A DNA stretch of 64,000 nucleotides from the IMG/VR virus record IMGVR_UViG_3300028886_000058, positions 60,602 to 124,601 of that record; one strand, given 5' to 3'. Position 1 is the stretch's first letter. Every line of letters begins with the position of its first letter. Below the pieces are notes generated by a model. It was not told where the DNA came from and searched no databases. It saw only the letters and a program-made list of their open reading frames with translations. This document shows positions 1,855 through 40,620 of this stretch, piece after piece. A program made the position numbers and the translations under genes. The DNA is from a virus (lineage: Duplodnaviria; Caudoviricetes).

Positions 1855-4800
1855 TTACCAAGCATATGCAGCTAAATTGAACCCGTCTTTTTGCAATTCT
1901 TTAGTGAATGCTTTACCAACTCTACGAGCGACCTCATCGTAATCAGCATCGCTCTCAAGACGAGCTTCATAAAGATTGACGTTAACATCTCCAACATTAA
2001 TACCGCCTTTTCCAAATGCGCTTTCATCAAGATGTGTCATGTAAGGTGAAGTTTTAATATACGTAAATTCATCAAGCATTGCACGTAGTAAAGCAGTGTC
2101 AGTAGAATCAAGGAAAGCTTCTGGTTTAGTTTTAGTTCCGTCAACCCAAGCTGGTCCAGTATAGTCTACAAGACCGCCGTTTAAGAACGTTCCTACGTTT
2201 TTCGCTTTTCTGCCACCCGCATTCACAGTTCCGTTTTTGTCTTCTTGATATATATTACCTGTTTGACGTTGAACGCCACCTTTTTTTGCAAATTCAGATA
2301 TGGCTGCGTCTTTAGCAGCATTTTTAGATGATTTCCATCCTCCACCAGCCAACAACGTTGTATTATCAGATTTTAAACCAAATGCTGTTGCATAGTAATT
2401 TGCATATCCACTAGGACTACTACTAGAACTGCTGCTACTGCTGCTACTTGAACTTTTCTTTTTCTTTGGTTCATCTTTTTTCCCAATACCTTCATATTCA
2501 CTAAATTGGCTCATGAAGTCAGTATACAAGTCTTTATGGGGTCCGCCGATAATAGCGTCAAAATAATCTTTAAGATTGCCAAAATCAGAATCAGCACTGT
2601 CCCATTCAACTTTGTAGGTCCAATCTTGCATATCGTCAATCTTGTCTAATATTTCATGAGTATCGTATAGTTCATATTTATCGTCTTTATCTGCAGCAAT
2701 CATACGATCATACATATAGTCAAGATTCATTTCAATTGCTTTTTTACCAGCTTCAGAAGCCATTGCATAAGAATCGCTGCCAAGCATATAATCCATAAAG
2801 CTTTCTTTAGAAGAACCATATCCTTCTACTTCATCCCAATAGGTTTGAAGCTCATGTTTCATTACATGCCAAGTATCTTCCCAACCTTGTTCAAGCTGTT
2901 TGCGACGTTCTTCAGAAGCATTTTTATATTCTTCATCGTCTTGAGCCATGAAATTAACAAAGTCATCAAAAGTACCGGATAAAAGTTCAGTTACTTTATC
3001 TCTAAATGTATCATAGTGACTTAGTCTTTCATTTAAATTTTCTTCTTCTGTGGATACGAATTCATCCAGCGCTTTTATCTGATCTTCATAAAGCTTATTT
3101 TGAGCAGCAGCTTGTTCATCAGCAATGTTCCAAGCAAGATCTCGTTCAATTTCTTCGATCTTCTTAGAAAGTTCTTTAGCGTCTTTTGTACGAGATTGAT
3201 CTGCCTGAATTAATGCTAACTGTTGTTTGAGCCGAGAAAGTTCTTCCATTTTATCTTCTTGGTTCATAGCATCTTTCTTTGCTTTTATTCTTTCGTTTAA
3301 CAAAGCCTTCTGTTCGTTCAAAGCTTCTTTCTGTTTTTGAATTGTTTTCTTAATCAAGGCCCATTCATCTTGGTAATTCTTTTTAATTACGTTTATTATA
3401 GTATTTTCCATAGTAACTGTAGCATTTAACATATTCTTTTCTGTTTGTATTCTATTTCTAATTTCTTTATCTATTGCATTTTCAACATCAGTATGAGCTT
3501 TTATAATAGCTTCCTGATTCTTTCTGATTTTTTCCGTTAATTGTTCTACAGTATTTATTTCAGATTTACGAGCTTCTTCCAGTTTATAAATTTCAGCTCT
3601 TACTTGTTTGTATATCGGAGAACTGCTATCTAATGTATCATAGAAAGCTCTTAATATTTCAAGTTGATTTTCTATATTCGATGTACGTTCATTATGAAGC
3701 CCTTGTTCAACCTCAAGAGCTCTACCGTAGTTAGTAAGCTCTCCAAGGTTCTGGAATTTGGTTTCATCGTATTGAACAAGCTTAATTTGGTGTTGATTAA
3801 GATCGTCGATTACAGAGAACGCATCAACAATATTTTGGAAACTAACTTGTTCTATCTCATTCTTGAGATCAATTATCGCATTTGAAGCGGATTTAGAACC
3901 TTGCTCAAGTTCCCAGATGCCTTCTGTTACTATTTTCCACGCGTCAGAATATTCTTCTATTTCACCATTTCCAATAGCAGTATCAAGCATCTCTTGGAGA
4001 CTATCTCGTTGGGCTTCCTGTTCAATAGCAATTTGCTCTTGAAGTTCAGCTTGCTCACGAAGCATCTGGAGATATCCCTCATTATTGCTTTCTTTTTTAT
4101 ATGCTTCGCCTTGCAATTGAGCCATTTGAAGCTGTGCCTGAAGAGGTTTAACAGCATCTTCAACTTGATATCTTGCTTGATCAACATAAGACTGCGCAAT
4201 TGCTTGATCTCTTTCGATCTTGTCGACGTCAAGCTGATGTAGCATTTCATCGTAGCTATACAATGCTTCTTTAGCATTGTACCAAGATTCAGTTTCAGAC
4301 CATCCATCTTCTTCAAGTTGAGCCATTTGTGCACGAGCACTGTTTGCTGCTTCTTGATAATACTTGTACAACTCTTCATTTTCTGCTTTAATCCCGCGAA
4401 CAGTATCGCGATATTCATCATACATATGAAGCATTTGATACGCATTACCATAACTTTCAAAGTTATTAATGTTATGTTGCGCATCCATAGAATTGCGTTC
4501 AAGCTGAGTAGCAATATTTCCAAGACGTGCTTCATTAAGCGCAATAGTATCTTGCAAGAATTGATTCTCAAGATCAGCATTTTCAGCTTGCAACTGCCAG
4601 ATATGATCTCTTACGTTCAGCCAATTCTTTGAGTTTTCCTTATACTTTGTAAGAAGATCTTCATATTCTTTTATGTCGTCATTATTCTTTTTAATATCTT
4701 CTTTGTATTGACTAAGAATGTCGTTTTGGGTAGATTCATACTTTCCAAATTCTTCAGCAAGCTGATAGTTCTGAGCTTGTTTCTGGAGTATCGTAGCACG

Positions 4801-7800
4801 TTGAGTAGCTGGTTTTTCTTCGTTTTCTTGCCTTATTTCTACTATTGTTATTTTCTTACCTTCTAAATCATCAAGAACATTCTTAATATTGTTGAGTTCT
4901 TCTTCGTAAGAATATAACTGCTCTGTTGCTTTCCACCAGTCATCAGAATATTTAGATAATCCACTTCGATAATTCTTTAATTCTTCTATACTCTTTTGAT
5001 ACTGGGCTTCAAGACGAGATTGAAGGTTTATTTCCTTGTCTACTGTAGATAAATAATTGTCATAATCATTCATCTTTTCGTAGTGTATTTCATCAATCTC
5101 GAGCATCTTTTGCTCGTGCTGCAAAGCGGCAAGATCATGCTTTTGTTTTTCAAGAAGCTTATCGAGGCCAGATTTACCTCCACCGCCTCCTCCGCCTCCG
5201 CCGCCACCATGAGATCCAGTTCCTTTTACACTATCAATAACAACTTTACCAGATACATGTGTCCCATCGTCGGTGACTTCATAATGAGCGTCAACACCCA
5301 TGGATTGGAGCAACGCAATTAGCTTTGCTTGCTCTTCAGACATCGCGCTGCCAACGCCTTCAACGATGTCTTCCATTGAAACATTCCATGATCCGCCTTC
5401 AAGATTAACAGTTGGTCCTCCAGGAATTGTTAACGTTTCTCCGTTAATATATTCGCCTAAAACATCAGAAAGATCATCTATATAATTGTTTGCAAAATCC
5501 TGTAGCCCAGCAATGTCACTTGCTTCGTTTTCCTCTAGCGCTTTTAATATCGCGTCATTAAATTTTCCTGATTTTAATTCTTTATCGCTAAGGTTAAACC
5601 CTGTCATTTCTTTTACAGCAGATAATGTATCCTTATCACGTTTTCCTTTTTTAAACTGATCAGTATAATATTGATTTTTAGCAACTTTTGACAATTCTGA
5701 ACGTAAATTCTTAAAAGCAGATGTTTGTTCTTGTATTGAGCTACTATCATCGTGCATCGCTTTTCTGGCATCACGCAAAGACTTTGTAATATTCTTTTGA
5801 GCTTTGTTCCATTCATCTGACGTCTTTCCAGACTTTTTTAGAATTTCATCATAACGCTCATTTGTCTCGTTGAAATCATCTAGCTCAATTCCAGCCTCTT
5901 GTACTGCTTCAGCAACAGCAGCCCATGTATCAAATCCTTCTATTCCAGACGTATAAGCCTCAAAAGAACCAATTCTATCGTTATTGCGTATTGCGCTTAT
6001 GTCGTTAGAATTTATAATTTGTTGTAAACCTTGATACCTCTGGGAATTTGTTAATCCAGACACGCCGTTTGCAGCATTGTTGACAATAGTATTTGCATAT
6101 AGCTGGTCTAAATCAGAAAGATTCTCGTTTGGATTGAACGTCGCTAAACGTTCTGTCATGTTGCCATCATCTAAAAACCATGATCCGTTTTCGAAATAAG
6201 CACCCTCCGGAAGATTTAACCCCACTCCATTTTGGAAATCAATAAGACTATTTCTAACGTAATTAGAATATCGCGTGTTTCCTGTAATTTGACTTAAAGC
6301 CTCATATCCGGCTTCTTGATCTGCAATGTCTCCTTGTAAAAACGAGAGCGCTCTATCGTAAGTTTCTCCAGATGTAAGCACTTCTGTTATATTGTTAAAA
6401 GATTCAGAAGCTGAAGCAGCTGCTTGAGCAAGCATCAATAAAACTTCAGAAGCTTCATGCCCAGAAGCTTCAACATCGGAAAAGTCTATGTTTCCATTTT
6501 CATCTGCTTTAACGCCAATATCGTTGAATTTTTTACGAAGTTCTTCTGAAGAATTTAAGAGATCTGTCCAGTTTTGAACATCAGTATCATTAATTGCGTT
6601 TGCAAGATCTACAAACGATTTAATGCTACCATTAGAAAGCGAATTATAAATCTCATTAGCAGCAATTGCGCCTTTGTTTTGTTGTTGATACTGTAATTGC
6701 TGATAATTAAAAGCTCCACCAGCAGACGTCGAAGACAGCTTAGCTTTTTCTAAACTCTCTTGTTCTTGTGCAACTCGAAGTGCTTCATTGTTTTCGTTAA
6801 ACGCTAATTGCCTTAATTCTTCTGATGGAGTTTGCCCGTTTTCTATTGCCCATTGATATTGTTGACCATAAGTTCCAAGACTTGAAACAGCGGCAGAATA
6901 AAGATCATAGTCGGTATCTTTTGTTAATACTCCATTTAACAATTGCATCCTTGCATTTGCTAATTCAGAATCTGAGTATTTACGCGTTGTATCAGCAAGC
7001 AAGGCAGATCTATCAACAGTACTGCTACTTGGCTTATTATAGTCAGCTAATATTTTTTCGTATCTTTCTTGTATATACGAAGGCACAGAAAAGAACGTGC
7101 CATATTGTGCCATATTATCTGATGCAAAACCAATAGTTCCAGTACTCTCATCATATTGATATCTATATTCATTTCCTGTTGTGCCATAAAAATCATTTAA
7201 CTCTGCTAAAGCAGCTTGGCGAATAGATTCATCTGTTTTTTGATCTTCTTCTGCTATTCTTTGCTCTGTTAACTTTATGGCTTCTTCTCTGTTGTTCTGT
7301 ATTCTTTCTTTTGACCATCCGGTATACGACATCATCGCATTAAGCTGTTCTTCAGCAGTGCCATTTCTAAATAAAGCAGCTTGTTGCGCATTGTTGTATA
7401 AAGTGTTTTCAAATTCAAGCTTCGCTTTAATGGCGAATTCTCCGCCTTTTTGAAGCCCTTCAACTAAGGCCGCAGTTCCTTCAAGTACTTTATTAGCGGA
7501 TTCTAATTCAGATACTCCTGTAACTGCTATTTGTACGTCTATCTCTCTTTTAAGATTAACCCCTTCTTGAGATCTGCGCTGGAAAAGATCCATTTGCATA
7601 TATTTCTCAAGGCCAGAAATACTTTTAGCAGCACTCCACTCGTCTTCTGTCCATTGAGTTAATCCTGTTTCAGCTTCTGTAAGAGAATCATATCCTAATA
7701 CTTTTTTAGCTAATGAAGCTGCTTGTGAATTGGTGTATTGTTTTCCTGTACCAAATGCAATTCCCTTTTCAGCAAGCGTTCTTCTTACAAGGTTTTCATA

Positions 7801-10800
7801 TTCAGAACCAACATATGTTCCTGTTTCAAGAGCATTAAGAATATTATCTGCATTATCTCCAAAATAAGTTTGGAATGATTTATATCCGTCGCTATTTCTG
7901 TATCCTTCTATAAGATTTGGTTGCGATGAAAGAAGATTAATTATTTCTCCCCAAGATGAAGATATACTAGCATTAGTTGCTTTACCTGTAACAGCATTTT
8001 CCAGTCCGGATTTAACAATATTAATATCGTTACCTAGCCAACCCAATAAAGCTTCTGGAGTATCAAATATAGCATTTGCCAATACAGAATCCAGCCCAGC
8101 AGAAGCATAAGCACTTTTTAGCTCGTCAATTGATTCATATTCAGATATTCCTTTAATTCTATATCTCGACAACGAGCTTAAATATGCCTTTTGAAGTCTT
8201 TTATCGTATTCCTCATCAGATTCTCCTTGATACTGAGAACCAGTAATTTCTTGAGCAAGCAACATAGCAGCATCTGTACTTATTGGTTGTCCGTTTAATA
8301 TGCTTGCTATGCTTGTTTGAAGATTGTTTGCATTGGCTTGTTGTATTTTAGCTGATATAAGTCTATCTGCAGTTTGATAAGCAACATTTCCGTTTGCATT
8401 TTTTATGCTTGTGTATTCTAAACCGTTTGTTCTGACAAATGCTTTTGCTTCGTCTTCAGTAGTAAAACCTTTTCCGTTAACAAAATACGACCATGCATCT
8501 TCCGGGGCATTCTCTTCAACAAAACGATTTATATAAGCGCTTGGATTGTTGCTATTTAAAAAGCCAGTAAACACACGAGAAATTAATGGAGTTATTGCTT
8601 CTGTACTTAAAAGACCTTTTTTTGCTCCTTCTTGAATCAGATATTCTGGCAATATTTCGTTAGTTTCTTGGTCTACAACGTTCTTAACTATGTAGTTCTT
8701 AAGTGTTTTTTCTAAAAATTCAGAATCATACACATCACTTGCATTTGCCAATGATTCGATAGGAAAGTCTTTTACCATATTTTGAGCAAAATTTAAATCA
8801 ATTTGCCTTTTAGCAATGTCTAAATTTTCTTGCATTTCCTGGTTCATTAAACCTGTAACTACATTTTGCCAAAAAGAAGTTGCATCTTCATTAGATATTT
8901 TATTTTCCTTTTTATTCTTTAAAGCAATTGCAACAGGATCAGTTCCATACATTATATCAATATAATCTTTAAAATCTTTGTTTTCAGAATATAAAGAAAC
9001 TAATGCATTTACTCTGCTTTGATTATCTTTATTGGCAGCACTTTCTGTGTTAAACTTACGAATAATTTCTTCTGGTGTTTTATCTTTATATATATTATAT
9101 CTGTCATTTGCTTCTTTGTAATCAGAGTAAGTATATGAACCAGATTCCATACCAGACATTATGGCATAAAGAGAACTTTCATTTGGAACATATTTTGACT
9201 TAATCCAACTAGAAATTCCTGTTTTTAAATTTGAGATGCGTTGTGGTGTAAAAGATTCTTCATATAATAAATTTTCATAAGTTTGTTGAGATGTTTTTGC
9301 CTCATAATCAACTGCTTCCTGAACTGTTTGACGAGTGTTTTCTTTAAGATACTTTTTGCCTGTTTCGCTAGCGCTTTTTACAGCATTTTCCCAGTTAGAA
9401 AGATCTTTAATTGCATTTAGAATTGACGCAGAAACTTCTGGAAACGCATTCTTTAAATCGTATAACCCTTTTGTAAGATTGTTTTCCGCTTGTGACTTAG
9501 CTACTGAGTCTTGAGAATCTTTTAAATCATTATATGCTTTTCCTAATCTCGTAACTTCATCTATGACATTTTGTTTGCTGTCATATGATTCATCTCTTAT
9601 TGCTTTTGATTCTTCGTTGCTTGTTAATAAACTTTCTTTATATTTATTAAACTTTTCTTTTTCACTTTGGAAATTTAAACCTGCAAATAATCCTTCAGAC
9701 AGAGCACCTCCGGCAAGTCCAGCAACCAACATAATTAATGTGGTAATCGGAGCAAGCTTGCCTCCACTAAGCGCCAATGCAGCAGTAGCAGCTGTAATCG
9801 CAGAGATACCTCCAGCAATAACAGAAAATCCATGCTCTATTCCATTATTATTAGATATCATTTGCAAGAATCCAGATATTCCATCAAGAACACCAGTTAC
9901 AACACCGCCATTAACAAAGCTTTCTACAACAGCGTCCCAAGAACTCTTTAATTCATTCATTGACGCTGAAAGACTCTGCATTGCGACTTCATATTTTGTT
10001 TGCGTTATTCCACTAGAGTTTTCAGCTAAGCCAAGATATTTATCTAACGTTGCACCATTATCTTCTGACATGCCCTCCATTAATGTTGCGAACACATTTG
10101 TCTGGCGAGTACCAGCCATCGCGTTCATAACAATATTCTTTTGGGCGTCGCTTAAATTTTGCCATACTTTTGATAAGTCAGACAAAACTTCATAAGACGA
10201 ACGCATTTTACCTAATGTTTTATCGTCCCAAAGATCAATTCCAACAGATTGTAAAGCAGCTTCAGCATCTGACGCCGTAGTTGCTTCGCCGTTCTGATCG
10301 GATGTCCATTTACTAAGACTTAGTCTCCTCATTCGAGTAAATACAGTTTGAAGAGCTGTGCCTACTTGTGTTCCGCTTAACTGCGTATCACTTGTACCAA
10401 TAGTTAAAAGAGCTGTCAATTCAGAATAAGAAACACCTGCAACTTTAGCCGCAGCCGCAGCTTTCTGCATACCTTTGCCAATTTCGGCAGCAGTTGTAGC
10501 AGCAGAGTCACCAAGCGCAACAAGAGCATCCATAGCTGCTTCTGCAGATGGAACAAGATCATTTTGTAAAGCTGTTGTAATTATTTTTGTTGCTTCAGTT
10601 ACGTTTAATTTAGTTACTGTTGCAAACTTAATAATGGACTCTGTACGAGAAGAAACTTCAGTATCACTTAATCCTTGACGATAAAGCGCCGCTTCAACAC
10701 CTGCAACATTAGATACTGATGTGCGAAGACCCAATGCTTTACTTATTGTTTGTGAACGAATTCCAGTCATATCCTCATCAGACTTTAAAGTTATGGCTTG

Positions 10801-13800
10801 AATTTCGTTCATTGAAGCGTCAAATTCTTTTACGAAACGTTTTGTTTCCTGAAGCGCTTTTTGGAACAACTGACGTCCAAGACGTGTAGCTAACCTGCCA
10901 ACAACGTCTCCGAATTGAGAAGTAATAGCCATTGCTGTAGCCATTGGATCAGATAATTGTTCAATAGCTTTTCCGGCCTCAAGCGAAGCAGCTTCAAGTT
11001 CTTCAACTTCTTTTTTTGTGTTTTTATACTTATCGCTTGAAGTATCTCCGCTTTTTATATAGCTGTTTAACTGCTCTCTTTTTTTCGTCAGATCTTCATT
11101 TATTGATTGCTGTTTATTTTCCCATTGGGATAACGCAGAATCTCTTCTGTCTAAAGCACGAACCAAGAACCCATTGCGAGTACCAAGACCATGCCTTTTC
11201 ATTTGATCCATTTGACGAATAGACTGTTTTATGCGTAAACTGTCTCGTTGTTCACGGATATCGTTTTCAGCTCTTAATTGTTCAATATAATCGTCTTCAT
11301 TGTATTGATCATAATAACTAAGCAAAGAATCTAATCTTTCTTGTTGTGCAGCAGACAGTTTTGTTTTACCGTATCTTTTTTGAATACTTGCTTTTTCTTG
11401 CTTTATTTTTTCTGTTTGTTCATGAGCCGCAATATTAATTTGTTCATCTGTAGACAATCTTAAGCTACTTACATTACCAGCAATTCTAGCTTTTCTTGAT
11501 TCAAAATCTGCGAATGATTTGTCAATAATATTATCGCCATATGCTTTCATAGATGATATGGATATCATCTTATCAAGACTTTTCATATAATTGGCATATT
11601 CATCAGATTCTTCATCTATGCCAAATTCTTTTGCGTATAATTTAGCATTTGCTTTTAGCTGTTTTACTGATTTTATATAAGATGTCATTTCGTCAGAGAT
11701 GGAAGTAACATTCGATGTCTTTTCACCAGAAGCAAGATCATCTAAATAATCTCTTGACTGATTAAGTTCGTCCCATACGTCTTTTTCGTTCTTTTTTAAA
11801 TACTTTGATTTTTCTTTATTTAATTTGTTCTGTAATGCCGCAGCTTCTTTTCGTTTTGGAATGAATATTTCATTCTGCGCTTCTATTTCAGCGATCTCAT
11901 TCTGAAGCCTTATTTTTTCTTCTTCTGTTTCGGCACCTTTTAGTTCAGCTTTTTTCTTTTTTGCATTAGTTTCATTTGATTCAATTTTGCTTTTAAGAAC
12001 TTCATATGCATCAGAAGCAGCTTCTATTTGTGCTGTAAGATTTTTAAATTCTTCGACCTTGCTGTTTGCCTTTTTCGATGCGACTTCTTCTGTATTGATA
12101 TTATGTAATAAATCATACGCATCCTGTAAATTTTTAACAGAAGCATCAGGCAATATCGCGTCTAATCCAGAACGAGCTCTGTCTACTTGATCTCTCAGCA
12201 TATCTGCTTGAATAAACATTCCAGCATTTTCAAGATCATAAATAGTGCCTTGTTGCATAGCAAGCTGTTCATAGTTTCTAAGCCATGCGTTTCCTCTAAG
12301 TCCTTGCTTGCTTGCATCGTTTTTCCAGATAAAACTATTGATTCCGGAAACGGTTTGCATTGCTTTATTATATTCGTCATGCATTACAAGAGCCGCGCCG
12401 ACACCTTCGCCAGTATTGCTGCCAACTTGAGCTTGCATATGTTCAACACGATTTTGTTCTTGCTGTAACGTATTTGCAATTTCGCTAAATCCGCTATGCC
12501 CAAACATATCGTCTAAAGCTTTACTAACCGCTAAAACTTGATCCATTTGGAATCCATTTTCCGCTAAGGTTTGGATAAGACGAGTTCCTTCTTGGGCCTT
12601 CTCGAGATTCTTTTGTATTGCTTCTGGAGAAGAATTAATCTGGCTTAGTCTGTTCTGTATCGGTTCAACGATATGGATACCTTCTAGTCCTCCGGCGGCA
12701 AGGCCTTTCGACTCTAAATAACCTGGAATAGCGCTTGCATACAACAACTGTTGCATTTGCCACATAGCTCTATCATGCGCTGTTGCATGAGGATAGTTCT
12801 TTAAGTCGCCAATTGAATACTGACCAGTTTTCCTGTTGCGTACCAATAAGTCGAAATAGCCTTTGCTTGTTACGTCTTCTTCTTCGCCTTTTTCATTCTT
12901 GTTTATTTTTTTACCAAGATTAAACGTAAGAGGAGAATTCTTTTCACCAGGACTTGTCGCGCCTTCTACGGCAACAACCTCATATTCGCTTTCAGGAAAT
13001 AAGTTCACTAAGCTATTACCAAGATAATTTTTTATATTTTTATAAGAATCTGTATTTTTAAGTTTCTTTACTTCTGCTTTTGATAAACCTTTTTTACCCA
13101 CATTATCGTCGAAATATTTTTCAAAATCTCCAACAGCTTCTTGTGCGGCTTTTGCTAATTCGTCTTCTGTCATTAATGTTGGGTTTTCTTCTAAGGCTCT
13201 TGCCATTCTTTTTCTCATAAATCCTTCAACGGCTTCATGAGTTGCCCAACCAAGATGTGTATACGGAGTAACATCTTGCTCTTTTCCGCCAAGATAATGT
13301 TCTGCCCATGCTGTTGGATTTTTCATTAATGATGCAAATAAGCTAGGAGAGAACTGAAGCTGATCAAGCTTTTTTGCGCGTGTTTCTTGATCAAAAGTGG
13401 CAATTTGAGATAATGTATCGTTACGTTCTAATAAGCGCTTTGCCTCTGCTTCTTGTTTTAATGCGTTATTAGATAAAACTTCTCCTTGCACATAGCCGCT
13501 TAAATCTGTATGACCTATAAGATTTGTTAAACCAATTTGATTAAGCTGACCAAATAAATCTCTATTAGCTCCAAGAATTGAAGAATTTTGAGTTAAAGCA
13601 TAAGAAACAAGGTTGTCTATTACAGATCCGCCTTGAGAAGCTAATCTTGATTTTGCAATTGCAGCGTCTGAGCGACGTAAATCAGTTCCTTTTAAAAGAC
13701 CATTTTGTCTTTCTTGAGCTACACGTTTTTCTTCTTCTTCGGTTGCCCTTGCTTTTAATTGCAATAACTGTGCAACCATTACATCAGACGGAGCCAAGTA

Positions 13801-16800
13801 ATCTGCGTTAACAATGCCTAGCATTGTATCACGTAATCCAAGCTTCATTCTTCCAACAGCACTATTAGGATCTATTTCTCCATTAGCCGTCTTAAGAATT
13901 TCATCCCAGTTATATCCTTCGTTTATGTCGTACCCGTACACATTCTTCGCAATAAAACGAGCAAGATTTTGAGATCGCATACTGCCACTCATACTTGCAG
14001 AAGGAAGATTTATACCGAAGAAATTCTTTTTCCTGAGTTCTTCAGGATCAATGTTTCCAAACTCGTCTCTGGATTTATCTACCATTCTATACCATTCACT
14101 GAATGGTTTATATTTTCCAATAATAGATTGTTGTTGGCTACTTGTGTTTCTACCTTCGCCTTTTTTACCTTCTGTTGAGTTTGCATTGTATTGTCTATCA
14201 GCATCGATCAATGCAATTGCTATCTCTGAATCTGGTGTCATTTGAAACGCATTTCGAACTGTTGCGTTAGGCGTTCCCATCGAAGACGATTGCAAAGCAT
14301 AGTCAGACATCCATACTGCCGCGTTCTGTGCACCCTTTTTAGTTCTAAAATCAGTAGAAAAACTGTTTCCATGTTCTCTGAAGCGCCTTAAAACATTGTC
14401 TCTTTGCTTAAGTTGTTCTTCGGAAAGATTTCCACTTTCATATAATTTTTTATTATTCTTTACAGTAGCAGTAACTATTTTGTCCATTACTTTTGCAATT
14501 GATGCTTTTTTCTCTTCGTTCGTAGCAAGTTCAATAATCTCCATTACGTCGCCGTCGAAATCAGCGCCTTGTAAAAGCTGCATCAATGGAGATGTAGTTG
14601 AGATATATAAACCATACGGATCTAATCCTATAGATTCTGCGAATTTTGAAATAGCATTATCGCCTTTCGCATTCATCACAGCTTGAACAGATTGTCCAGT
14701 TGCTGGGTATCTGCCAAGACCTAATTTGCTTGCAAGTGTTTTTTGGAACAAGACTCTATTGTCCCCAAGTGTCAATTCATTGAGTCTATTTTGCACTTTC
14801 TTTGGAAGTTGCTCAAAAGCCGACATAGTTTCGCCATTACGCTTTGTCTGCATATCAGCATTAAACGCATCAATTAACCATGGAGCAGCCATTCCTTTAT
14901 ATGCAGATGCGTTTTCTGGAAGCATAATGTCTCCACGCAACATTCTTGCCATAATTGCTTGGCGGTAATCAGAAATTCTATTTTGAATAGCTTTGCTTCC
15001 AAAAAGTTCTGGATGCTTAGCAAGCAAATCGTGTGTTTCACCTTCGGCAAATAAATGATTCATTGCATAATCGTAGTTACCGACATTTTTATAATGTTCG
15101 ATAAAAGATCTTGCAAACAACATGCTATCTGATTTATCCATTGAAAGTGTTTGCGCTAACTGTCCAGATATCCATCTTGTTTTACCGTTTGCGTCGCTGT
15201 AAAGTTTATTAGCATATATTCCTTTTTGAATATCTTTTTGAACTTCTTTTGTTATTTCTTCATTTGTCATTCCTGCGAAACGAGCGTTTGCATTTTTCAA
15301 GTCCGCAGCGTTAACAATCATATCAACGTCTTTGCCAATCTTGATGCGTTTACCAATCTTAATTTCCTTACCTTTATCATCAAGACGAACATTTCCATTT
15401 TCATCTAATAAAGCTTCTTTTTCTGCGTCAGATCCAGTATACGACGAAAGATAAAGTTCGCCACCGTAAGCTTCTATAAGTTTCTCAATATCTACAGCAG
15501 AAAGTGCAGACTTAATACCATGTGCACGACCTTGGAAACCTTTCTGTACAAATCTGTTAGAAATAATACTAGCACCGTTTAGTCCAGCGCCGCCATTTCC
15601 TTTTGTAGTGTCTTCAAGATCAACAACAACAATGTTTTGAGGCATTTCAGACCCAAATAATTTTTGAATGCTTTTGCCTGGCGTTGCGTTTTTATTTCTA
15701 TATTCCATTGCAGCAGCATATGTTTTCCAATCAGAAAAATCTGTCATTCCTAATCCAGCTGAAAAATATGTAGGATCTTCTTTGTTTATTTTGTCAAAGA
15801 TGCTTTTCCTAACAAATTCAGCTCCCATTTTAGGATTTATTCTGGATAAGACATATCTTTCATTCGCATCGTTCTTTCCTTTGCCGGAAATACCATGTTG
15901 AAACACATCAGCGTATTGATTAATTAAAGCTTTTCTTTCCGCTGCTGGTAAATTTGGATCACCAAGACGCGGATCAACCTCAAGATAAATTACATCGTCT
16001 GAATACGCATTATGCTTTTTGATACCGCCTTTGCTATTACGCATAATAGTATTAAGATGCATACTTTCGTCAACTGCAATGTGATGATAGTCTTTGTAAT
16101 TATCATATGTTTTTCTATCGTTCCAATTTCTATTGTTTTTTATATCATCTAAGTTATAAAAAGCAACTTCATAACTATTCGGAACAGGAGAATAATTAAT
16201 CTTTCCTGCTGAATACATTACGTTTTGCTTGTTTCTTCTTCCGCTATTTATCTTATTATAATCTTGTTGGGAATATCTTTCTGCTTCAAACCATCCATAT
16301 TCATCACTTAACCTTCTTGCGGCAGACATTCCACCCATAAATCTTTTGTTTGATTTGCGAGCTATTTTATCCCAGACGGCAGGATCATTAACGTCTGTGA
16401 TGCCGTACATTCCCATACCCTTTGCTGAATTCACAAGATCATCATATAAATAAGCGCCCATTGACTTGACCATGCCTCTGGACACGTTCTTCTTGACAAA
16501 GAGTTCACCATTTTTTCTTTGTACGATTTTAGCTGCTTCAGCAGCGTCAGCTGCAAACTGGTTATTCATCAACAAAGAATATAATGCTTGAGTTTCTTTA
16601 GCCGTTAATGATTGCGAATTTGCTTTTAATGCTTTTGCAAAATCAGGACTTGAGACATTTGCTGTACCAGTATTTATTCTTTTAAAACCTGTTGGAAGCA
16701 TATCCTGAAAACTGTCAAAAAGATGTTTTGCAGATCCTGTGCCAGTTGCTATTCTATTCATGAACGAAGCACGTTGAGTTTGACCTACACCTTTAAGAAT

Positions 16801-17373
16801 TGCCAGTCGGAAAATATCATCAACGTTACCAGAAGTATCATTTCCTAGTAATGCAGAACGCATTGCTTTGTATTTTTGTGTCGCTTTTATAGAAGCTAGG
16901 ATTTGATCATCAGATGCCAAAGAACCGGTTTGTCTATAAATTTTAGTCGCATCTCTTGCCATTCCCATTAACTGAGGCATTAACGACTTCATTTGCTTTT
17001 GAGTATATGCTGTTGTTTGAGAGCCTATCTGCGATGTCAATTTCTGGATGGTTTGCACATCAGAAATAACGGCAGACAAACTTCTTGCCAAATTATTGAA
17101 CTCTGTTGTTTTAATATCCATTTGATATGAATCAAGTTTTCCAGCTTTTATTTGATCATTTATCAAAGACATATTGTGAAGAGTATTTGTGACGTTTTGA
17201 GATGCTTCATCAAATTGAGCACCAGTTTCTGGCAAAATAGATTCCGCATTCTTTTTTGTTTCTTTAATTGTTTTATTAAGTCTTTCACCCGCTGTAACAA
17301 GAGAGTTAAAATTCTCAACCGAATTACCAAAATCAATTTCAAAAGAAATTACACTTTGATTCTTTTCTGGCAT
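1855..17373 (-). CDS. Giant tape measure protein (5172 aa) with N-terminal RNA polymerase-like and PD-(D/E)XK nuclease-like domains
   Basis: TP901-type TMP core at about 9950-10830 (LYRQGLSD...ALGDSAATTAAEIGKGMQKA...SGTQVGTALQTVFTRM), long coiled coils and C-terminal GGLVDYTGPAWVDG. Also carries GRYP and GADFDGD motifs (14548-14712) and FSPS...GYFDLL...GDLK...QQLLYA motifs (about 12730-13356). Confidence 0.9.
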   Translation of the reverse strand: MPEKNQSVISFEIDFGNSVENFNSLVTAGERLNKTIKETKKNAESILPETGAQFDEASQNVTNTLHNMSLINDQIKAGKLDSYQMDIKTTEFNNLARSLSAVISDVQTIQKLTSQIGSQTTAYTQKQMKSLMPQLMGMARDATKIYRQTGSLASDDQILASIKATQKYKAMRSALLGNDTSGNVDDIFRLAILKGVGQTQRASFMNRIATGTGSAKHLFDSFQDMLPTGFKRINTGTANVSSPDFAKALKANSQSLTAKETQALYSLLMNNQFAADAAEAAKIVQRKNGELFVKKNVSRGMVKSMGAYLYDDLVNSAKGMGMYGITDVNDPAVWDKIARKSNKRFMGGMSAARRLSDEYGWFEAERYSQQDYNKINSGRRNKQNVMYSAGKINYSPVPNSYEVAFYNLDDIKNNRNWNDRKTYDNYKDYHHIAVDESMHLNTIMRNSKGGIKKHNAYSDDVIYLEVDPRLGDPNLPAAERKALINQYADVFQHGISGKGKNDANERYVLSRINPKMGAEFVRKSIFDKINKEDPTYFSAGLGMTDFSDWKTYAAAMEYRNKNATPGKSIQKLFGSEMPQNIVVVDLEDTTKGNGGAGLNGASIISNRFVQKGFQGRAHGIKSALSAVDIEKLIEAYGGELYLSSYTGSDAEKEALLDENGNVRLDDKGKEIKIGKRIKIGKDVDMIVNAADLKNANARFAGMTNEEITKEVQKDIQKGIYANKLYSDANGKTRWISGQLAQTLSMDKSDSMLFARSFIEHYKNVGNYDYAMNHLFAEGETHDLLAKHPELFGSKAIQNRISDYRQAIMARMLRGDIMLPENASAYKGMAAPWLIDAFNADMQTKRNGETMSAFEQLPKKVQNRLNELTLGDNRVLFQKTLASKLGLGRYPATGQSVQAVMNAKGDNAISKFAESIGLDPYGLYISTTSPLMQLLQGADFDGDVMEIIELATNEEKKASIAKVMDKIVTATVKNNKKLYESGNLSEEQLKQRDNVLRRFREHGNSFSTDFRTKKGAQNAAVWMSDYALQSSSMGTPNATVRNAFQMTPDSEIAIALIDADRQYNANSTEGKKGEGRNTSSQQQSIIGKYKPFSEWYRMVDKSRDEFGNIDPEELRKKNFFGINLPSASMSGSMRSQNLARFIAKNVYGYDINEGYNWDEILKTANGEIDPNSAVGRMKLGLRDTMLGIVNADYLAPSDVMVAQLLQLKARATEEEEKRVAQERQNGLLKGTDLRRSDAAIAKSRLASQGGSVIDNLVSYALTQNSSILGANRDLFGQLNQIGLTNLIGHTDLSGYVQGEVLSNNALKQEAEAKRLLERNDTLSQIATFDQETRAKKLDQLQFSPSLFASLMKNPTAWAEHYLGGKEQDVTPYTHLGWATHEAVEGFMRKRMARALEENPTLMTEDELAKAAQEAVGDFEKYFDDNVGKKGLSKAEVKKLKNTDSYKNIKNYLGNSLVNLFPESEYEVVAVEGATSPGEKNSPLTFNLGKKINKNEKGEEEDVTSKGYFDLLVRNRKTGQYSIGDLKNYPHATAHDRAMWQMQQLLYASAIPGYLESKGLAAGGLEGIHIVEPIQNRLSQINSSPEAIQKNLEKAQEGTRLIQTLAENGFQMDQVLAVSKALDDMFGHSGFSEIANTLQQEQNRVEHMQAQVGSNTGEGVGAALVMHDEYNKAMQTVSGINSFIWKNDASKQGLRGNAWLRNYEQLAMQQGTIYDLENAGMFIQADMLRDQVDRARSGLDAILPDASVKNLQDAYDLLHNINTEEVASKKANSKVEEFKNLTAQIEAASDAYEVLKSKIESNETNAKKKKAELKGAETEEEKIRLQNEIAEIEAQNEIFIPKRKEAAALQNKLNKEKSKYLKKNEKDVWDELNQSRDYLDDLASGEKTSNVTSISDEMTSYIKSVKQLKANAKLYAKEFGIDEESDEYANYMKSLDKMISISSMKAYGDNIIDKSFADFESRKARIAGNVSSLRLSTDEQINIAAHEQTEKIKQEKASIQKRYGKTKLSAAQQERLDSLLSYYDQYNEDDYIEQLRAENDIREQRDSLRIKQSIRQMDQMKRHGLGTRNGFLVRALDRRDSALSQWENKQQSINEDLTKKREQLNSYIKSGDTSSDKYKNTKKEVEELEAASLEAGKAIEQLSDPMATAMAITSQFGDVVGRLATRLGRQLFQKALQETKRFVKEFDASMNEIQAITLKSDEDMTGIRSQTISKALGLRTSVSNVAGVEAALYRQGLSDTEVSSRTESIIKFATVTKLNVTEATKIITTALQNDLVPSAEAAMDALVALGDSAATTAAEIGKGMQKAAAAAKVAGVSYSELTALLTIGTSDTQLSGTQVGTALQTVFTRMRRLSLSKWTSDQNGEATTASDAEAALQSVGIDLWDDKTLGKMRSSYEVLSDLSKVWQNLSDAQKNIVMNAMAGTRQTNVFATLMEGMSEDNGATLDKYLGLAENSSGITQTKYEVAMQSLSASMNELKSSWDAVVESFVNGGVVTGVLDGISGFLQMISNNNGIEHGFSVIAGGISAITAATAALALSGGKLAPITTLIMLVAGLAGGALSEGLFAGLNFQSEKEKFNKYKESLLTSNEESKAIRDESYDSKQNVIDEVTRLGKAYNDLKDSQDSVAKSQAENNLTKGLYDLKNAFPEVSASILNAIKDLSNWENAVKSASETGKKYLKENTRQTVQEAVDYEAKTSQQTYENLLYEESFTPQRISNLKTGISSWIKSKYVPNESSLYAIMSGMESGSYTYSDYKEANDRYNIYKDKTPEEIIRKFNTESAANKDNQSRVNALVSLYSENKDFKDYIDIMYGTDPVAIALKNKKENKISNEDATSFWQNVVTGLMNQEMQENLDIAKRQIDLNFAQNMVKDFPIESLANASDVYDSEFLEKTLKNYIVKNVVDQETNEILPEYLIQEGAKKGLLSTEAITPLISRVFTGFLNSNNPSAYINRFVEENAPEDAWSYFVNGKGFTTEDEAKAFVRTNGLEYTSIKNANGNVAYQTADRLISAKIQQANANNLQTSIASILNGQPISTDAAMLLAQEITGSQYQGESDEEYDKRLQKAYLSSLSRYRIKGISEYESIDELKSAYASAGLDSVLANAIFDTPEALLGWLGNDINIVKSGLENAVTGKATNASISSSWGEIINLLSSQPNLIEGYRNSDGYKSFQTYFGDNADNILNALETGTYVGSEYENLVRRTLAEKGIAFGTGKQYTNSQAASLAKKVLGYDSLTEAETGLTQWTEDEWSAAKSISGLEKYMQMDLFQRRSQEGVNLKREIDVQIAVTGVSELESANKVLEGTAALVEGLQKGGEFAIKAKLEFENTLYNNAQQAALFRNGTAEEQLNAMMSYTGWSKERIQNNREEAIKLTEQRIAEEDQKTDESIRQAALAELNDFYGTTGNEYRYQYDESTGTIGFASDNMAQYGTFFSVPSYIQERYEKILADYNKPSSSTVDRSALLADTTRKYSDSELANARMQLLNGVLTKDTDYDLYSAAVSSLGTYGQQYQWAIENGQTPSEELRQLAFNENNEALRVAQEQESLEKAKLSSTSAGGAFNYQQLQYQQQNKGAIAANEIYNSLSNGSIKSFVDLANAINDTDVQNWTDLLNSSEELRKKFNDIGVKADENGNIDFSDVEASGHEASEVLLMLAQAAASASESFNNITEVLTSGETYDRALSFLQGDIADQEAGYEALSQITGNTRYSNYVRNSLIDFQNGVGLNLPEGAYFENGSWFLDDGNMTERLATFNPNENLSDLDQLYANTIVNNAANGVSGLTNSQRYQGLQQIINSNDISAIRNNDRIGSFEAYTSGIEGFDTWAAVAEAVQEAGIELDDFNETNERYDEILKKSGKTSDEWNKAQKNITKSLRDARKAMHDDSSSIQEQTSAFKNLRSELSKVAKNQYYTDQFKKGKRDKDTLSAVKEMTGFNLSDKELKSGKFNDAILKALEENEASDIAGLQDFANNYIDDLSDVLGEYINGETLTIPGGPTVNLEGGSWNVSMEDIVEGVGSAMSEEQAKLIALLQSMGVDAHYEVTDDGTHVSGKVVIDSVKGTGSHGGGGGGGGGGGKSGLDKLLEKQKHDLAALQHEQKMLEIDEIHYEKMNDYDNYLSTVDKEINLQSRLEAQYQKSIEELKNYRSGLSKYSDDWWKATEQLYSYEEELNNIKNVLDDLEGKKITIVEIRQENEEKPATQRATILQKQAQNYQLAEEFGKYESTQNDILSQYKEDIKKNNDDIKEYEDLLTKYKENSKNWLNVRDHIWQLQAENADLENQFLQDTIALNEARLGNIATQLERNSMDAQHNINNFESYGNAYQMLHMYDEYRDTVRGIKAENEELYKYYQEAANSARAQMAQLEEDGWSETESWYNAKEALYSYDEMLHQLDVDKIERDQAIAQSYVDQARYQVEDAVKPLQAQLQMAQLQGEAYKKESNNEGYLQMLREQAELQEQIAIEQEAQRDSLQEMLDTAIGNGEIEEYSDAWKIVTEGIWELEQGSKSASNAIIDLKNEIEQVSFQNIVDAFSVIDDLNQHQIKLVQYDETKFQNLGELTNYGRALEVEQGLHNERTSNIENQLEILRAFYDTLDSSSPIYKQVRAEIYKLEEARKSEINTVEQLTEKIRKNQEAIIKAHTDVENAIDKEIRNRIQTEKNMLNATVTMENTIINVIKKNYQDEWALIKKTIQKQKEALNEQKALLNERIKAKKDAMNQEDKMEELSRLKQQLALIQADQSRTKDAKELSKKIEEIERDLAWNIADEQAAAQNKLYEDQIKALDEFVSTEEENLNERLSHYDTFRDKVTELLSGTFDDFVNFMAQDDEEYKNASEERRKQLEQGWEDTWHVMKHELQTYWDEVEGYGSSKESFMDYMLGSDSYAMASEAGKKAIEMNLDYMYDRMIAADKDDKYELYDTHEILDKIDDMQDWTYKVEWDSADSDFGNLKDYFDAIIGGPHKDLYTDFMSQFSEYEGIGKKDEPKKKKSSSSSSSSSSSSSPSGYANYYATAFGLKSDNTTLLAGGGWKSSKNAAKDAAISEFAKKGGVQRQTGNIYQEDKNGTVNAGGRKAKNVGTFLNGGLVDYTGPAWVDGTKTKPEAFLDSTDTALLRAMLDEFTYIKTSPYMTHLDESAFGKGGINVGDVNVNLYEARLESDADYDEVARRVGKAFTKELQKDGFNLAAYAW

Positions 17374-20843: not shown

Positions 20844-21521
20844 TTAGGCATTTACAAATTGTATGTGGAGTCCATTTATCGTGCGATTATTATGACACGC
20901 ATGACTAATTGAAGATTTGTTTATATTTAGTCTTCTAGCTGCTTCTGAAATAGATTCAAAAACTTCATTAGTTTCAACGACAATTATGCGTTTCATAAAA
21001 CTTCTTTTTATTTCTCTTGAACGTTCTTTAAACTCTTCAGAACGTTTTTTACCACGATTTTTCTCTGCACTTTTCATTATCGAATCCATAGATATTACTT
21101 GTTTAGCTCTTGCAACTTTTATTTTTTGTTTTGTTTCTTCTGAAACAATTTTATTAATATTTGCTTGTCTTATTTTTTCTATTGATTCTTCTGAGTGTTT
21201 ACAGGCAAATCCACCCGCATCGATATTATATCCATTGTTTATTGTATCAAAGTTTTTAATTAATAATCTTTCCATGTTTGCTGCTTCTTGGACGGTAAGT
21301 TTTGAAGCAATGACTTCATGATCAAAACTATCCCATCCATATTTTTTTATAGCTTTATAAAATTTATCACAATGAATATAACCTGATCCGTCTTTACCCC
21401 ATCTTAAAGAAGGTTTCTTTACACCAGTAATTCCAATATACATTTTCCCGTTAAGTTTATTAATATGGGCATAAACAAAATAAGTATCATTCAAAATAAT
21501 CATAAAAAGCTCCTTATACAA
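20844..21521 (-). CDS. Intron-encoded GIY-YIG homing endonuclease with NUMOD3/NUMOD1-type C-terminal repeats
   Basis: YFVYAHINKLNGKMYIGIT (GIY-YIG variant), NGYNI, HSEESIEKI/VSEETKQKI repeats and FESISEAARRLNI HTH. Confidence 0.9.
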   Translation of the reverse strand: MYKELFMIILNDTYFVYAHINKLNGKMYIGITGVKKPSLRWGKDGSGYIHCDKFYKAIKKYGWDSFDHEVIASKLTVQEAANMERLLIKNFDTINNGYNIDAGGFACKHSEESIEKIRQANINKIVSEETKQKIKVARAKQVISMDSIMKSAEKNRGKKRSEEFKERSREIKRSFMKRIIVVETNEVFESISEAARRLNINKSSISHACHNNRTINGLHIQFVNA

Positions 21522-24926: not shown

Positions 24927-25928
24927 TTAGCCAATTTCGTAAGCACCGATAGTAGGAATGCTTCCAACAACAAACGCAGCACCGAAGCGCTGAGTAAGTT
25001 CGGTTTCAAACGTATGATCATCAATCGTCTGCTGAGTCATGCTGTAGGTCGGACCCTCATTCAGAACTTTCAGATTCTTTTGATCATTGCCAACACCAGA
25101 AGAAATAATATAGATCCAATCCTCATTCAGAATAGGAGTGGTCTTACCATCTTCATAAGCGTTGACCATAGAAATAACGCTAGCACCATTGTAACGTCCA
25201 AGGTAACCAGTGTTATTCTTCTCGTCGATCATGCTACCGCTGTACTGTATGCTCGTGTTAGACACAGGAGCACCAGCCAGAGCAAACAGACCTTCGACAG
25301 CAGCAGCGTCACCAACGAGTGACACGCCGCCAAGACGCTTAAAGTACATCAGCTGGTCATCCAGCGTAGCCTTCACGATACCGGTACCAGTGCCATAGAA
25401 CGGACTCTGATACTGAGAAATAGCATTGTGCAGAACCTGCTCCACATACTTCAGTTTCAGCATGGTGAATTCCTTGTTCGCATCGCGAATCAGGTCAGGC
25501 ATGTTGATACGATTCATGCGAATATCCCAGATGTTGATAGCGGGACGGCTCGCAATTTCAAAAGTATTAATGGAGAACTGACGGTCAGTCACATAGCTAC
25601 GAGCAGTCGTAGCACCAGTAGCCTGAATGAACGCCTTGATACCAGCGGTCTTCATCCGATACATAGGCCTGTCGCCAAGCGCCACGTTACGAATATCACC
25701 GAAGGTTTCCATGAAGTTCAGAGAATTCTGCTGCAGTTCGTTAATAGTGAACGCAATGATCTGACCAATTTCGTGCTGATGCTGAGGAGACATGTCCTGA
25801 GCCAGTTCATTCACGATAGCGGAAGCTTCTTCGACCTTATCGGAGTCGACCCGTTCATTACGGACCTGAGCAGCCATTACTTTAATAAGCTTGCTGTCCT
25901 TATCCACTTTAATTTCAGCCATTGTCAT
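24927..25928 (-). CDS. Major capsid protein
   Basis: 333 aa, follows protease/scaffold and decoration genes, strongly biased codon usage, LGRYNGASVISMVNAY motif typical of SPbeta-like capsids. Confidence 0.8.
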   Translation of the reverse strand: MTMAEIKVDKDSKLIKVMAAQVRNERVDSDKVEEASAIVNELAQDMSPQHQHEIGQIIAFTINELQQNSLNFMETFGDIRNVALGDRPMYRMKTAGIKAFIQATGATTARSYVTDRQFSINTFEIASRPAINIWDIRMNRINMPDLIRDANKEFTMLKLKYVEQVLHNAISQYQSPFYGTGTGIVKATLDDQLMYFKRLGGVSLVGDAAAVEGLFALAGAPVSNTSIQYSGSMIDEKNNTGYLGRYNGASVISMVNAYEDGKTTPILNEDWIYIISSGVGNDQKNLKVLNEGPTYSMTQQTIDDHTFETELTQRFGAAFVVGSIPTIGAYEIG

Positions 25929-29094: not shown

Positions 29095-30648
29095 TCATTC
29101 TTCCATAGATCCTTCAGGGTTAGATGGTTTAGGTTGTTTACCCCTGATTGCATTTTCAGGATCTGATGTTCGCTCGGTCTCGTCCATTTCCGGACGTCCG
29201 ACTTTTTCCTGAACATATTCAGTGTTGCCTATTTCACGAGGAAGCATAGCTTCGTCTGTTCCATCAGACTTTTCTTTCTCACGGTTTTCTCTTTCAACTT
29301 CAAGAGAATAACCTTGAGTCTTAAGCATATGATCAGTAGAAATAACACCTTTCTCCCAAAGTTCAACAGCTTTTTCACGCAAAGCCTTTTTGCCTTCGAT
29401 AGAAAGAGGCTGAAAATGGAATTCAGGAGTTTCTTTTAAGTTATATGTGCCTGGAATTACTTCGGCAAGACGCTTGTTGATTTGCGTCATCATGTCACAG
29501 AATTCGTCCCTGATGGCATTAATACGAGCCTCTGCCGTTTCTGTTGAAATCTGAGCAGAAGCAAACGTAGAACCGTCTTCCGATATACCAGTAACCAATA
29601 ATCCGCTAATGCCTCCGGCAGCTAATATATCATTATTAACATTGCGATACTTGTCCCATTGGAACAAGTCATCCATGTCAAACTGAATTGTTTCTGCAGA
29701 AGCTAAATGATTAGTAACAGCTAAAGGAGTGCCGCTCATAGCCGCAAGGAAAATTCTTCTCACCGCAGACAATTGAGCCTGATCTGGAAGAATGTCGTTT
29801 GTTTTAGAACTCTCGCCGTATTTAACATGGACAAAACTTCTCTTGCCAATATTAAGCATTGCGTCTTCATAACTTGAAATAAGTTCCTTTTTAGATAACG
29901 CTCTTAAAGCAGCCGCAATAAACGGAATGGCGTATCTCTGCCAGCTTTCCTTCGATCCTTGTAATACAAATGTGTTAGCGGGATCAAGCTGCGCATACTG
30001 CTGACCAGCTTTAACTGCTTTTTGAACTTCTTCCGGATAACCCTTTAAAATATAATCCGTGTTGCTGTCTTTTACATACTTTTCAGTAATACTGTAAGAC
30101 TTCATCTGAATTTCGTTGATAATGCTTTGGCAGTCATAATCAACAATAGGAGTTCCGTTAAACATAGTGTTACCGATTCTCCATTTGTTTATCGGTAATG
30201 TTATAAGATCTCCATCCTTTAGATAACAACACACATTATTGTATTTAGTAAACTCAAGCATAATAGCATCGAGTTTTTCTCTTAGCCGCATACGCTTATA
30301 TTGTTCTTCGTATAAAGCGTATGTTTTTTTCTTAGACCCTGTTAAGTACCATTCAGAACAAGTAAGAAAAGGAACAAATACATGTTTCACGATTCCGTGA
30401 ATAATAGGATCAGCATCTGTATAATAATCAGCAAGCTGATAAAAACTTTGAATGTTGTCCTGCTTATTACGTAAAATGTTTACATAATCATAGCTTGATA
30501 ATTCGCCTGAAAATGTAAAATTAGAATTAGTAAAGCTTTGAATCGTTTCCTGATCCTGTTCCTTGCTTGCGCCAACTGCAATAGTTTTCTGGGGCTGAAC
30601 AGCCACAGTTGTCTTAGTTCGACCAAATAACTGGTCAATCAATCCCAT
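29095..30648 (-). CDS. Portal protein
   Basis: 517 aa immediately after the terminase; RYAIPFI and C-terminal KVGRPE motifs as in SPbeta-like portals. Confidence 0.8.
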   Translation of the reverse strand: MGLIDQLFGRTKTTVAVQPQKTIAVGASKEQDQETIQSFTNSNFTFSGELSSYDYVNILRNKQDNIQSFYQLADYYTDADPIIHGIVKHVFVPFLTCSEWYLTGSKKKTYALYEEQYKRMRLREKLDAIMLEFTKYNNVCCYLKDGDLITLPINKWRIGNTMFNGTPIVDYDCQSIINEIQMKSYSITEKYVKDSNTDYILKGYPEEVQKAVKAGQQYAQLDPANTFVLQGSKESWQRYAIPFIAAALRALSKKELISSYEDAMLNIGKRSFVHVKYGESSKTNDILPDQAQLSAVRRIFLAAMSGTPLAVTNHLASAETIQFDMDDLFQWDKYRNVNNDILAAGGISGLLVTGISEDGSTFASAQISTETAEARINAIRDEFCDMMTQINKRLAEVIPGTYNLKETPEFHFQPLSIEGKKALREKAVELWEKGVISTDHMLKTQGYSLEVERENREKEKSDGTDEAMLPREIGNTEYVQEKVGRPEMDETERTSDPENAIRGKQPKPSNPEGSMEE

Positions 30649-36897: not shown

Positions 36898-37099
36898 AAG
36901 AAACTTTAATTAAATAAAACAACAGCCAGTCCTGAGCATGACGTTAAACTGCTCATTAACTTTGAAATTTCGAGCTTTATGCTCTTGATATAAATTGCGA
37001 AGCTGCTGTCGCGTAGAGTTCAGCAGTCGGTTAAAGCTCCGTTAAAAGCTCTTTTTGTTTACCAAAAAAGATGAGGCAAAGCCTCGAAAGGAGAACACT

Positions 37100-39908: not shown

Positions 39909-39949
39909 GATTACGGTCTTCAGAAATTTAATATTGGAGGTATCCCATC

Positions 39950-40590: not shown

Positions 40591-40620
40591 AAATACGCTT
40601 AATAGCGAAAGGAGAAAAAT

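Follow-up and report, generated by a model that had tools for sequence, protein, structure and literature searches.

The window studied here takes up the final 64 kb of an IMG/VR virus record 124,601 bp long (IMGVR_UViG_3300028886_000058; estimated completeness 92%). This record is of metagenomic origin and represents an uncultured phage with a genome of about 125 kb and 37% G+C. All positions given below refer to the window. The minus strand exhibits a giant open reading frame (ORF) of 5172 amino acids (aa) at positions 1855-17373, corresponding to a tape measure protein (TMP) of the tail. An earlier note, made from the letters alone, had proposed that the N-terminal part of this ORF carries an RNA polymerase (RNAP) domain and that the fusion is a candidate injected virion RNAP. 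Four polymerase motifs were identified within this single ORF (aa 598-942), in the order given by that note and all inside positions 14100-15900 of the minus strand: LNGASIIS (aa 598-605; 15559-15582), GFQGRAHGIKSAL (aa 612-624; 15502-15540), LGRYP (aa 886-890; 14704-14718) and LQGADFDGD (aa 934-942; 14548-14574). The first motif is present, but the form DG-x-G-x-IS attributed to it has to be corrected: the family consensus is DGxxxIS, and this phage exhibits an asparagine (N599) within it. It is very likely that these motifs belong to a real two-barrel polymerase domain, maintained by selection inside a real TMP.

The TMP frame is uninterrupted, its translation and the ORF list exhibiting no stop across 15.5 kb. 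The tape measure core (aa 2212-2421; 10111-10740, minus strand) matches the Pfam family PhageMin_Tail (PF10145, E-value = 3e-29), and ten PHROG families of the "tail length tape measure protein" type match the ORF at the same residues. Two hydrophobic membrane-type segments were found by a Kyte-Doolittle scan at aa 2515-2564 (9682-9831, minus strand). The gene takes its place in a siphophage morphogenesis order running along the minus strand: large terminase (TerL, 30668-32338), portal (29095-30648), head genes (including a head protein at 24927-25928), neck proteins, TMP, Dit (639-1775; PHROG 33, Pfam Sipho_tail) and, downstream of Dit, a YomG-like tail protein. The latter is a partial ORF (1-624, minus strand) exhibiting the YomG N-terminal domain (YomG_N). 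The core, the ten TMP families, the hydrophobic segments and the downstream Dit and YomG-like genes thus bear out the designation of the 5172-aa protein as a genuine TMP. The G+C content of its gene (0.33-0.38) equals that of the neighbouring structural genes, so that the polymerase part exhibits no compositional sign of recent acquisition.

For a protein of the size and composition of this TMP, the chance expectation of DxDGD is about 0.1. About one in ten such proteins would therefore exhibit the motif by chance, which makes it weak evidence when taken alone. What raises it above chance is its conservation, its register with a stand-alone RNAP and the predicted fold. In a 36-row alignment of homologues, D918, D938, D940, G941 and D942 are invariant, and Q614, R616, K621, R888 and P890 reach at least 90% conservation in rows whose overall identity is 24-70%. 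Every TMP homologue covering the site exhibits DxDGD, mostly as DFDGD. R888-Y-P890 is separated by 47 residues from D938-F-D-G-D942, an arrangement matching the filter [RK]xPx{20,100}DxDxD taken from Supplementary Data 4 of PMC10770324. Two basic residues in the second double-psi beta-barrel (DPBB-B) have been described as a feature of the clade (PMC7824862); in the TMP these conserved residues are R616 and K621.

These residues bear directly on the idea that the domain is a catalytically dead relic, kept as a structural or length-setting part of the TMP. N599 in place of a conserved aspartate would suit such a relic, but the metal-binding aspartates are invariant, and the basic residues and RxP remain at least 90% conserved down to 24% identity. 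Since a dead domain would not keep invariant catalytic residues, we regard the relic as very improbable.

The polymerase region escapes recognition by ordinary sequence searches: none of Pfam, PHROGs, PDB sequence search and pairwise BLAST identifies it as a polymerase. TMP aa 1-1700 exhibit no Pfam match at E-value ≤0.1, so that membership of the Pfam RdRP family PF05183 was not found by sequence. Neither phmmer nor a profile of short homologues retrieved a polymerase from the PDB sequences, and megablast and tblastn against 50,697 phage records returned no match (records of the phage's own genome were possibly masked).

An AlphaFold2 model of TMP aa 401-1300 (13474-16173), for which 25 homologues were used, reached a mean predicted local distance difference test score (pLDDT) of 87.6 and a predicted template modelling score (pTM) of 0.85. 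The model exhibits a two-barrel RNAP domain at about aa 430-1150 (13924-16086, minus strand). The model strands place a DPBB-B-like barrel at about aa 581-690 (15304-15633, minus strand; approximate boundaries), containing N599-G600, Q614, R616 and K621. The strands and the motif positions together place a DPBB-A-like barrel at about aa 824-950 (14524-14904, minus strand), containing R888-Y-P890, D918 and the metal-binding D938-F-D940-G-D942. The two barrels are joined by a helical connector of about 130 aa, modelled as folded (pLDDT about 88-94) and occupying the position of a clamp element, at about aa 691-823 (14905-15303, minus strand; approximate boundaries).

A Foldseek search of the PDB with this model retrieved QDE-1 (E-value = 3.9e-10), plant RDR2 (E-value = 1e-7), and the phage proteins P74-26 gp62 (E-value = 3.4e-5) and P23-45 gp64 (E-value = 1.7e-4). 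The match to gp66 of phi14:2, a crAss-like phage, was weak (E-value = 0.043), and P23-45 gp96 scored an E-value of 0.71. A second structural comparison, yielding two figures per target, gave 18.6 and 506 for RDR2, 17.7 and 534 for QDE-1, 15.0 and 429-441 for gp62/gp64, 11.2 and 375 for gp96, and about 8.5 and about 125-195 for cellular beta-prime subunits. As modelled, the polymerase domain is structurally nearer to the QDE-1 and gp64 type than to gp96. A double-psi beta-barrel fold, which the proposal of a TMP-borne polymerase required, is predicted with high confidence, and the modelled domain is a single-chain two-barrel RNA polymerase fold of the QDE-1/YonO clade, matching QDE-1, RDR2 and phage RNAPs. 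QDE-1 and RDR2 (PDB 2j7n and 7w82) are cellular RNA-dependent or dual polymerases of RNA silencing with no virion link, and the similarity to them is one of shared clade, not of shared role. The N-terminal quarter of the TMP thus harbours, at about aa 430-1150, a complete single-chain two-barrel RNAP that is probably active.

The same genome encodes a stand-alone YonO/QDE-1-like RNAP of 812 aa (37055-39493, plus strand; Pfam RdRP PF05183, E-value = 9.2e-9; PHROG 8308, E-value = 9e-75), a candidate non-virion RNAP. It exhibits FDGCGI at aa 198, RNPH at aa 424 and RADYDGD at aa 462, and the earlier note had drawn a parallel between these motifs and those of the TMP. The enzyme has 195 metagenomic homologues at E-value ≤1e-5, and D464-Y-D-G-D468 is invariant in a 23-row alignment of its family. 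When the full-length TMP alignment, trimmed to the polymerase domain, was compared by hhalign with the alignment of the stand-alone family, the two families matched with a probability of 89% and an E-value of 2.1e-6. In the extended alignment, G600, R616 and K621 of the TMP pair with G200, R217 and K222 of the stand-alone enzyme, R888-x-P890 with R424-x-P426, and D938-F-D-G-D942 with D464-Y-D-G-D468; these counterparts are all invariant among the stand-alone enzymes. Given this register and the E-value, the parallel is a matter of true paralogy. Significance was reached only with full-length rows and a family profile, a fragment alignment giving a weak match to the single stand-alone RNAP sequence (hhalign E-value = 0.0026). 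BLASTP of TMP aa 1-1700 against the stand-alone RNAP produced noise plus a bare ADFDGD/ADYDGD match, which was rejected.

The order of motifs (D/N-G, R...K, RxP, DxDGD) is common to the TMP domain and the stand-alone phage RNAPs, namely gp64, gp62 (PDB 8f72, 8f5m), YonO and the 812-aa enzyme. Those RNAPs, however, are separate polypeptides, 600-850 aa in length, that are synthesised after infection, whereas the present domain is embedded in a tail protein. Five long related genomes were examined, and in four of the four complete ones a stand-alone homologue accompanies the fused one. Some complete relatives apparently carry, besides the TMP-fused enzyme, genes for two two-barrel RNAP paralogues of the stand-alone kind (G005:C1:41212-43629 and 67484-69106; G004:C1:50876-53101 and 69882-70190; also G001). 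If real, this would bring the number of such polymerases in one phage to three.

With aa 401-1400 as the query, 1.84 billion cluster representatives were scanned in full by HMMER, which yielded 56 relatives. Those not obviously cut at contig ends are proteins of 3.7-6.0 thousand aa, with the domain at about aa 400-1400. The short relatives resemble the giants at their start and break off at what are presumably contig ends, and no stand-alone version of the TMP polymerase domain was seen among the 56. A total of 27 full-length homologues have the first 400 aa, the polymerase region, the core of the TMP and its C-terminal end in common. The motif-bearing frame is open for more than 4200 aa in 13 IMG/VR contigs of up to 151 kb. 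The related genomes exhibit 37-48% G+C and lengths of 110-150 kb, with direct terminal repeats in four of the five long records examined. Six clusters of TMP homologues were looked up, and no name or accession was found for them in any source. As the genome is a metagenomic contig, the fusion might be suspected to be an assembly or gene-calling artefact joining two genes. The same unbroken architecture is nevertheless found in dozens of independent contigs from different samples, and the frame of the present gene is free of stops throughout. The likelihood of such an artefact appears negligible.

The TMP gene is mosaic. Some homologues (P0025, P0030, P0008) exhibit a core and a C-terminus nearly identical to those of the window TMP (P0001; E-value from 1e-166 to 1e-235), yet their polymerase domains are only 24-34% identical. 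A near-identical core combined with a divergent polymerase suggests recombination inside the TMP gene, with the fusion always preserved. The conserved N-terminal module (aa 1-400; 16174-17373, minus strand) exhibits no Pfam or PHROG match. By protein-language-model features it resembles tape-measure families with a score of 0.91 on few shared features; from this weak lead, the polymerase may be an insertion within the TMP and not an N-terminal addition.

A precedent for such a protein exists in a Thermus phage. Chaban et al. 2024 (PMC10770324) described gp96, the 5002-aa TMP of P23-45, as carrying at its N-terminus a two-barrel RNAP in which DFDGD occupies aa 779-783. This RNAP is present in P23-45 virions, is active in vitro and transcribes pre-early genes, including the gene of the non-virion RNAP gp64 (PMC10770324). 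Crystal structures exist for both gp96 (PDB 8h2n) and gp64, which were inferred to be products of an old duplication, and the gp96 RNAP was proposed to be located at the TMP pore and to transcribe the incoming DNA (PMC10770324). According to the same paper gp96 is flat and clamp-less, with a short disordered connector, and its flatness was proposed to aid passage through the tail channel. In comparison with the gp96-type set (P23-45, P74-26, G20c, TSP4), the present system exhibits many of the same features: a giant TMP (5172 versus 5002 aa) whose N-terminal quarter contains a single-chain two-barrel RNAP, DFDGD as the metal-binding motif, a few hundred residues ahead of the polymerase, membrane-type segments further along, and a further RNAP, paralogous and stand-alone, encoded by the same genome. 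Both phages are siphophages. The differences concern the position of DFDGD (aa 938 versus 779), the connector (long and folded in our model versus short and disordered in gp96), the metallopeptidase domain (present in gp96, not found here in a Pfam scan) and an extra Cas4/AddB-like nuclease domain found here. The genome itself, a metagenomic sequence of about 125 kb with 37% G+C, also contrasts with that of P23-45, a phage of a thermophile.

Very large particle-borne polymerase proteins, injected to start transcription, are also found in phi14:2 and N4. The N4 virion enzyme is a T7-like, not a two-barrel, polymerase. The phi14:2 protein gp66 (PDB 6vr4) matched our model weakly, as noted above, and is not a TMP. 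Both phi14:2 and N4 are podophages carrying the enzyme in the capsid. The delivery of an RNAP by a TMP has been known in principle since Chaban et al. 2024 (PMC10770324), and the present phage belongs to a different family; our literature search found no paper on a TMP-RNAP fusion outside the P23-45 group. What is new here is a mesophile-type family without detectable similarity to P23-45, with a long connector predicted to be folded and, in the closest relatives, a predicted nuclease.

By analogy with gp96, we propose that the polymerase would be incorporated in the tail as a segment of the TMP, would exit the tail with the TMP at infection, and would transcribe the pre-early genes on the entering DNA with no need of the host polymerase; the stand-alone RNAP would then take over. 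We assign a probability of roughly 0.75 to this overall explanation, and of 0.7-0.75 to the domain working as an ejected virion RNAP that opens a two-polymerase cascade in the style of P23-45. The delivery by the virion and the early transcription rest on the precedent of gp96 (PMC10770324). Release of the polymerase by proteolysis, which had also been suggested, is pure speculation. The interpretation of a polymerase within the TMP is supported as far as sequence goes, having survived the two checks that were run, on the predicted fold and on the conservation of DFDGD. In siphophages the C-terminus of the TMP lies at the tail tip and leaves first, and the N-terminus is head-proximal, adjoining the DNA. 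A polymerase at the N-terminus would hence be the last part to exit, directly ahead of the genome, which suits an enzyme engaging the first DNA to enter.

Several observations weigh against this proposal. N599 occupies a position of the DGxxxIS motif where most relatives have an aspartate. No sequence similarity to gp96 or gp64 was detected: phmmer and profile searches of the PDB were empty in this respect, hhalign of either family against the single sequences of gp64 or gp96 was not significant, and hhalign of the fragment alignment against gp96 gave no match. A BLASTP comparison of every window ORF with every P23-45 ORF likewise gave no match, which indicates that the two phages are not detectably related. 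The functional analogy is thus one of architecture and fold only. The phage is known from a metagenomic contig alone. The model exhibits a long folded connector, in contrast to the flat and clamp-less gp96, and transit through the tail is harder to explain for a bulkier enzyme. Finally, the TMPs of some phages are proteolytically processed, and the N-terminal part might be missing from the mature tail.

This last point leads to a different explanation, in which the polymerase part would be removed by cleavage, or an internal start would also give rise to TMP. The tail would then contain only the C-terminal tape measure, with the RNAP working as a non-virion enzyme in the producing cell. Besides the known cases of TMP processing, it is favoured by geometry, as three or more folded N-terminal modules of 190 kDa cannot fit into the approximately 4-nm lumen of the tail tube. 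One relative also has its TMP called as two ORFs: in the P0030 cluster, P0179 (2413 aa) and P0182 (2381 aa) lie on one 62,250-bp contig and together correspond to the full TMP length, which points to a frameshift introduced by sequencing or, alternatively, to a TMP that is split in nature. The fusion, however, is kept in every member of the family despite the highly mosaic gene, which argues for selection on the physical linkage, and the phage already encodes a separate candidate non-virion RNAP. For gp96, virion proteins were blotted and probed with an antibody to a 1050-residue N-terminal fragment, and gp96 was concluded to be a virion enzyme (PMC10770324). Taken together, these points leave the cleavage or internal-start explanation a rather slim chance.

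Directly behind the polymerase, a second enzymatic domain was identified at about aa 1340-1620 (12514-13356, minus strand; AlphaFold2 pLDDT 78.8). Foldseek matched its model to the Cas4-family nuclease ACE1 (E-value = 2.3e-5), AddB (E-value = 3.1e-5), AdnA (E-value = 6.7e-5) and Dna2, with a probability of 1.0 and E-values from 2e-5 to 1e-4 for the four. The region exhibits no Pfam match. The motif set D...D/ExK...QxxxY is present together with the fold: H1379, E1470, D1508, D1523, K1525 and Q1541 are invariant in eight rows, and Y1545 of Q1541...Y1545 was read from the sequence of this protein only. Accordingly modelled, aa 1340-1620 are predicted to form a PD-(D/E)xK nuclease of the RecB/Cas4/AddB type. 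The domain is confined to the seven closest homologues.

In a further alternative explanation the polymerase, although active, would serve a purpose other than early-gene transcription, such as the synthesis of primers on the entering DNA, the copying of RNA in the manner of QDE-1, or joint work with the nuclease on host or phage DNA ends. In favour of such a function, the best structural matches, RDR2 and QDE-1, are RNA-dependent or dual-activity enzymes, the RecB/Cas4-like nuclease directly follows the polymerase in the closest relatives, and RNase H and SSB genes adjoin the stand-alone RNAP gene. Conversely, the members of the phage clade that have been tested (gp96, gp64 and YonO) are DNA-dependent transcriptases according to PMC10770324 and PMC5467207, and the RNAP is a constant feature of the homologues, most of which lack the nuclease. 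We therefore grant these other functions a small chance and retain early transcription by a TMP-borne RNAP as the preferred explanation.

More tentatively, and with considerable doubt on our part, TMP-fused polymerases may be recurrent in long-tailed phages, possibly having evolved independently, and the present one may be part of a multi-enzyme pilot module. Such a module would consist of the conserved N-terminal part, a clamp-bearing QDE-1-like RNAP and the Cas4/AddB-like nuclease. It would cross the tail in an unfolded state and regain its fold at the membrane pore, coupling DNA entry, end processing and first transcription.

The P23-45 precedent was limited to one genus of thermophile phages. 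A second family exhibiting the same architecture without detectable P23-45 sequence implies that tail-delivered polymerases are probably commoner than one odd case. The family offers mesophilic enzymes for study, from metagenomic phage genomes of 110-150 kb. It also sharpens a physical puzzle, as a tail tube about 4 nm wide must accommodate an enzyme of about 100 kDa, with an apparently folded connector and a nuclease beside it, and let it pass. Given that the domain has no Pfam or PHROG match and no name in any source, many "giant TMPs" of viromes may hide polymerases.

A candidate promoter sequence of the phage RNAPs is GACGGCGCAAGCGCCTG-N3-AT-N-C-N-GTGAA, of which the 124.6-kb genome contains three copies only, each with a GGCGC/GCGCC hairpin (39880-39909, 40562-40591 and 41481-41510, plus strand). 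They are located in a block of 43-54% G+C directly after the stand-alone RNAP gene. Each copy lies 40-160 nt upstream of a small gene, these genes being a 73-aa ORF, RNase H (40621-41055) and SSB (41674-42039). One of the phage polymerases may use the sites as promoters. Five related genomes exhibited the hairpin motif in one similar copy only, 2.5 kb behind the orthologous RNAP gene of G005, the related genome with the closest stand-alone RNAP. A single copy in five relatives is too little to assign the motif to either polymerase.

Some minor features of the tail module and its surroundings may be added. The TMP contains two homorepeats on the minus strand, one of 11 glycines (aa 4056-4066; 5176-5208) and one of 13 serines (aa 4974-4986; 2416-2454). 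A 2026 paper (PMC13585406) is said to tie such TMP homorepeats to tail length. YomG is named after the SPbeta prophage, the same phage that encodes the RNAP YonO, and the YomG N-terminal domain at 1-624 hints at a distant tie of this tail module to SPbeta-like phages. A GIY-YIG-type homing endonuclease gene (20844-21521, minus strand) is situated in the midst of the structural genes. Genes resembling HNH endonucleases adjoin the terminase (32335-33252, minus strand) and occur in the early region (49925-50497, plus strand). Five tRNA genes (Pro-TGG, Leu-TAA, Gln-TTG, Asn-GTT and Ile-TAT) are dispersed through the early-region genes between 50570 and 60048 on the plus strand.

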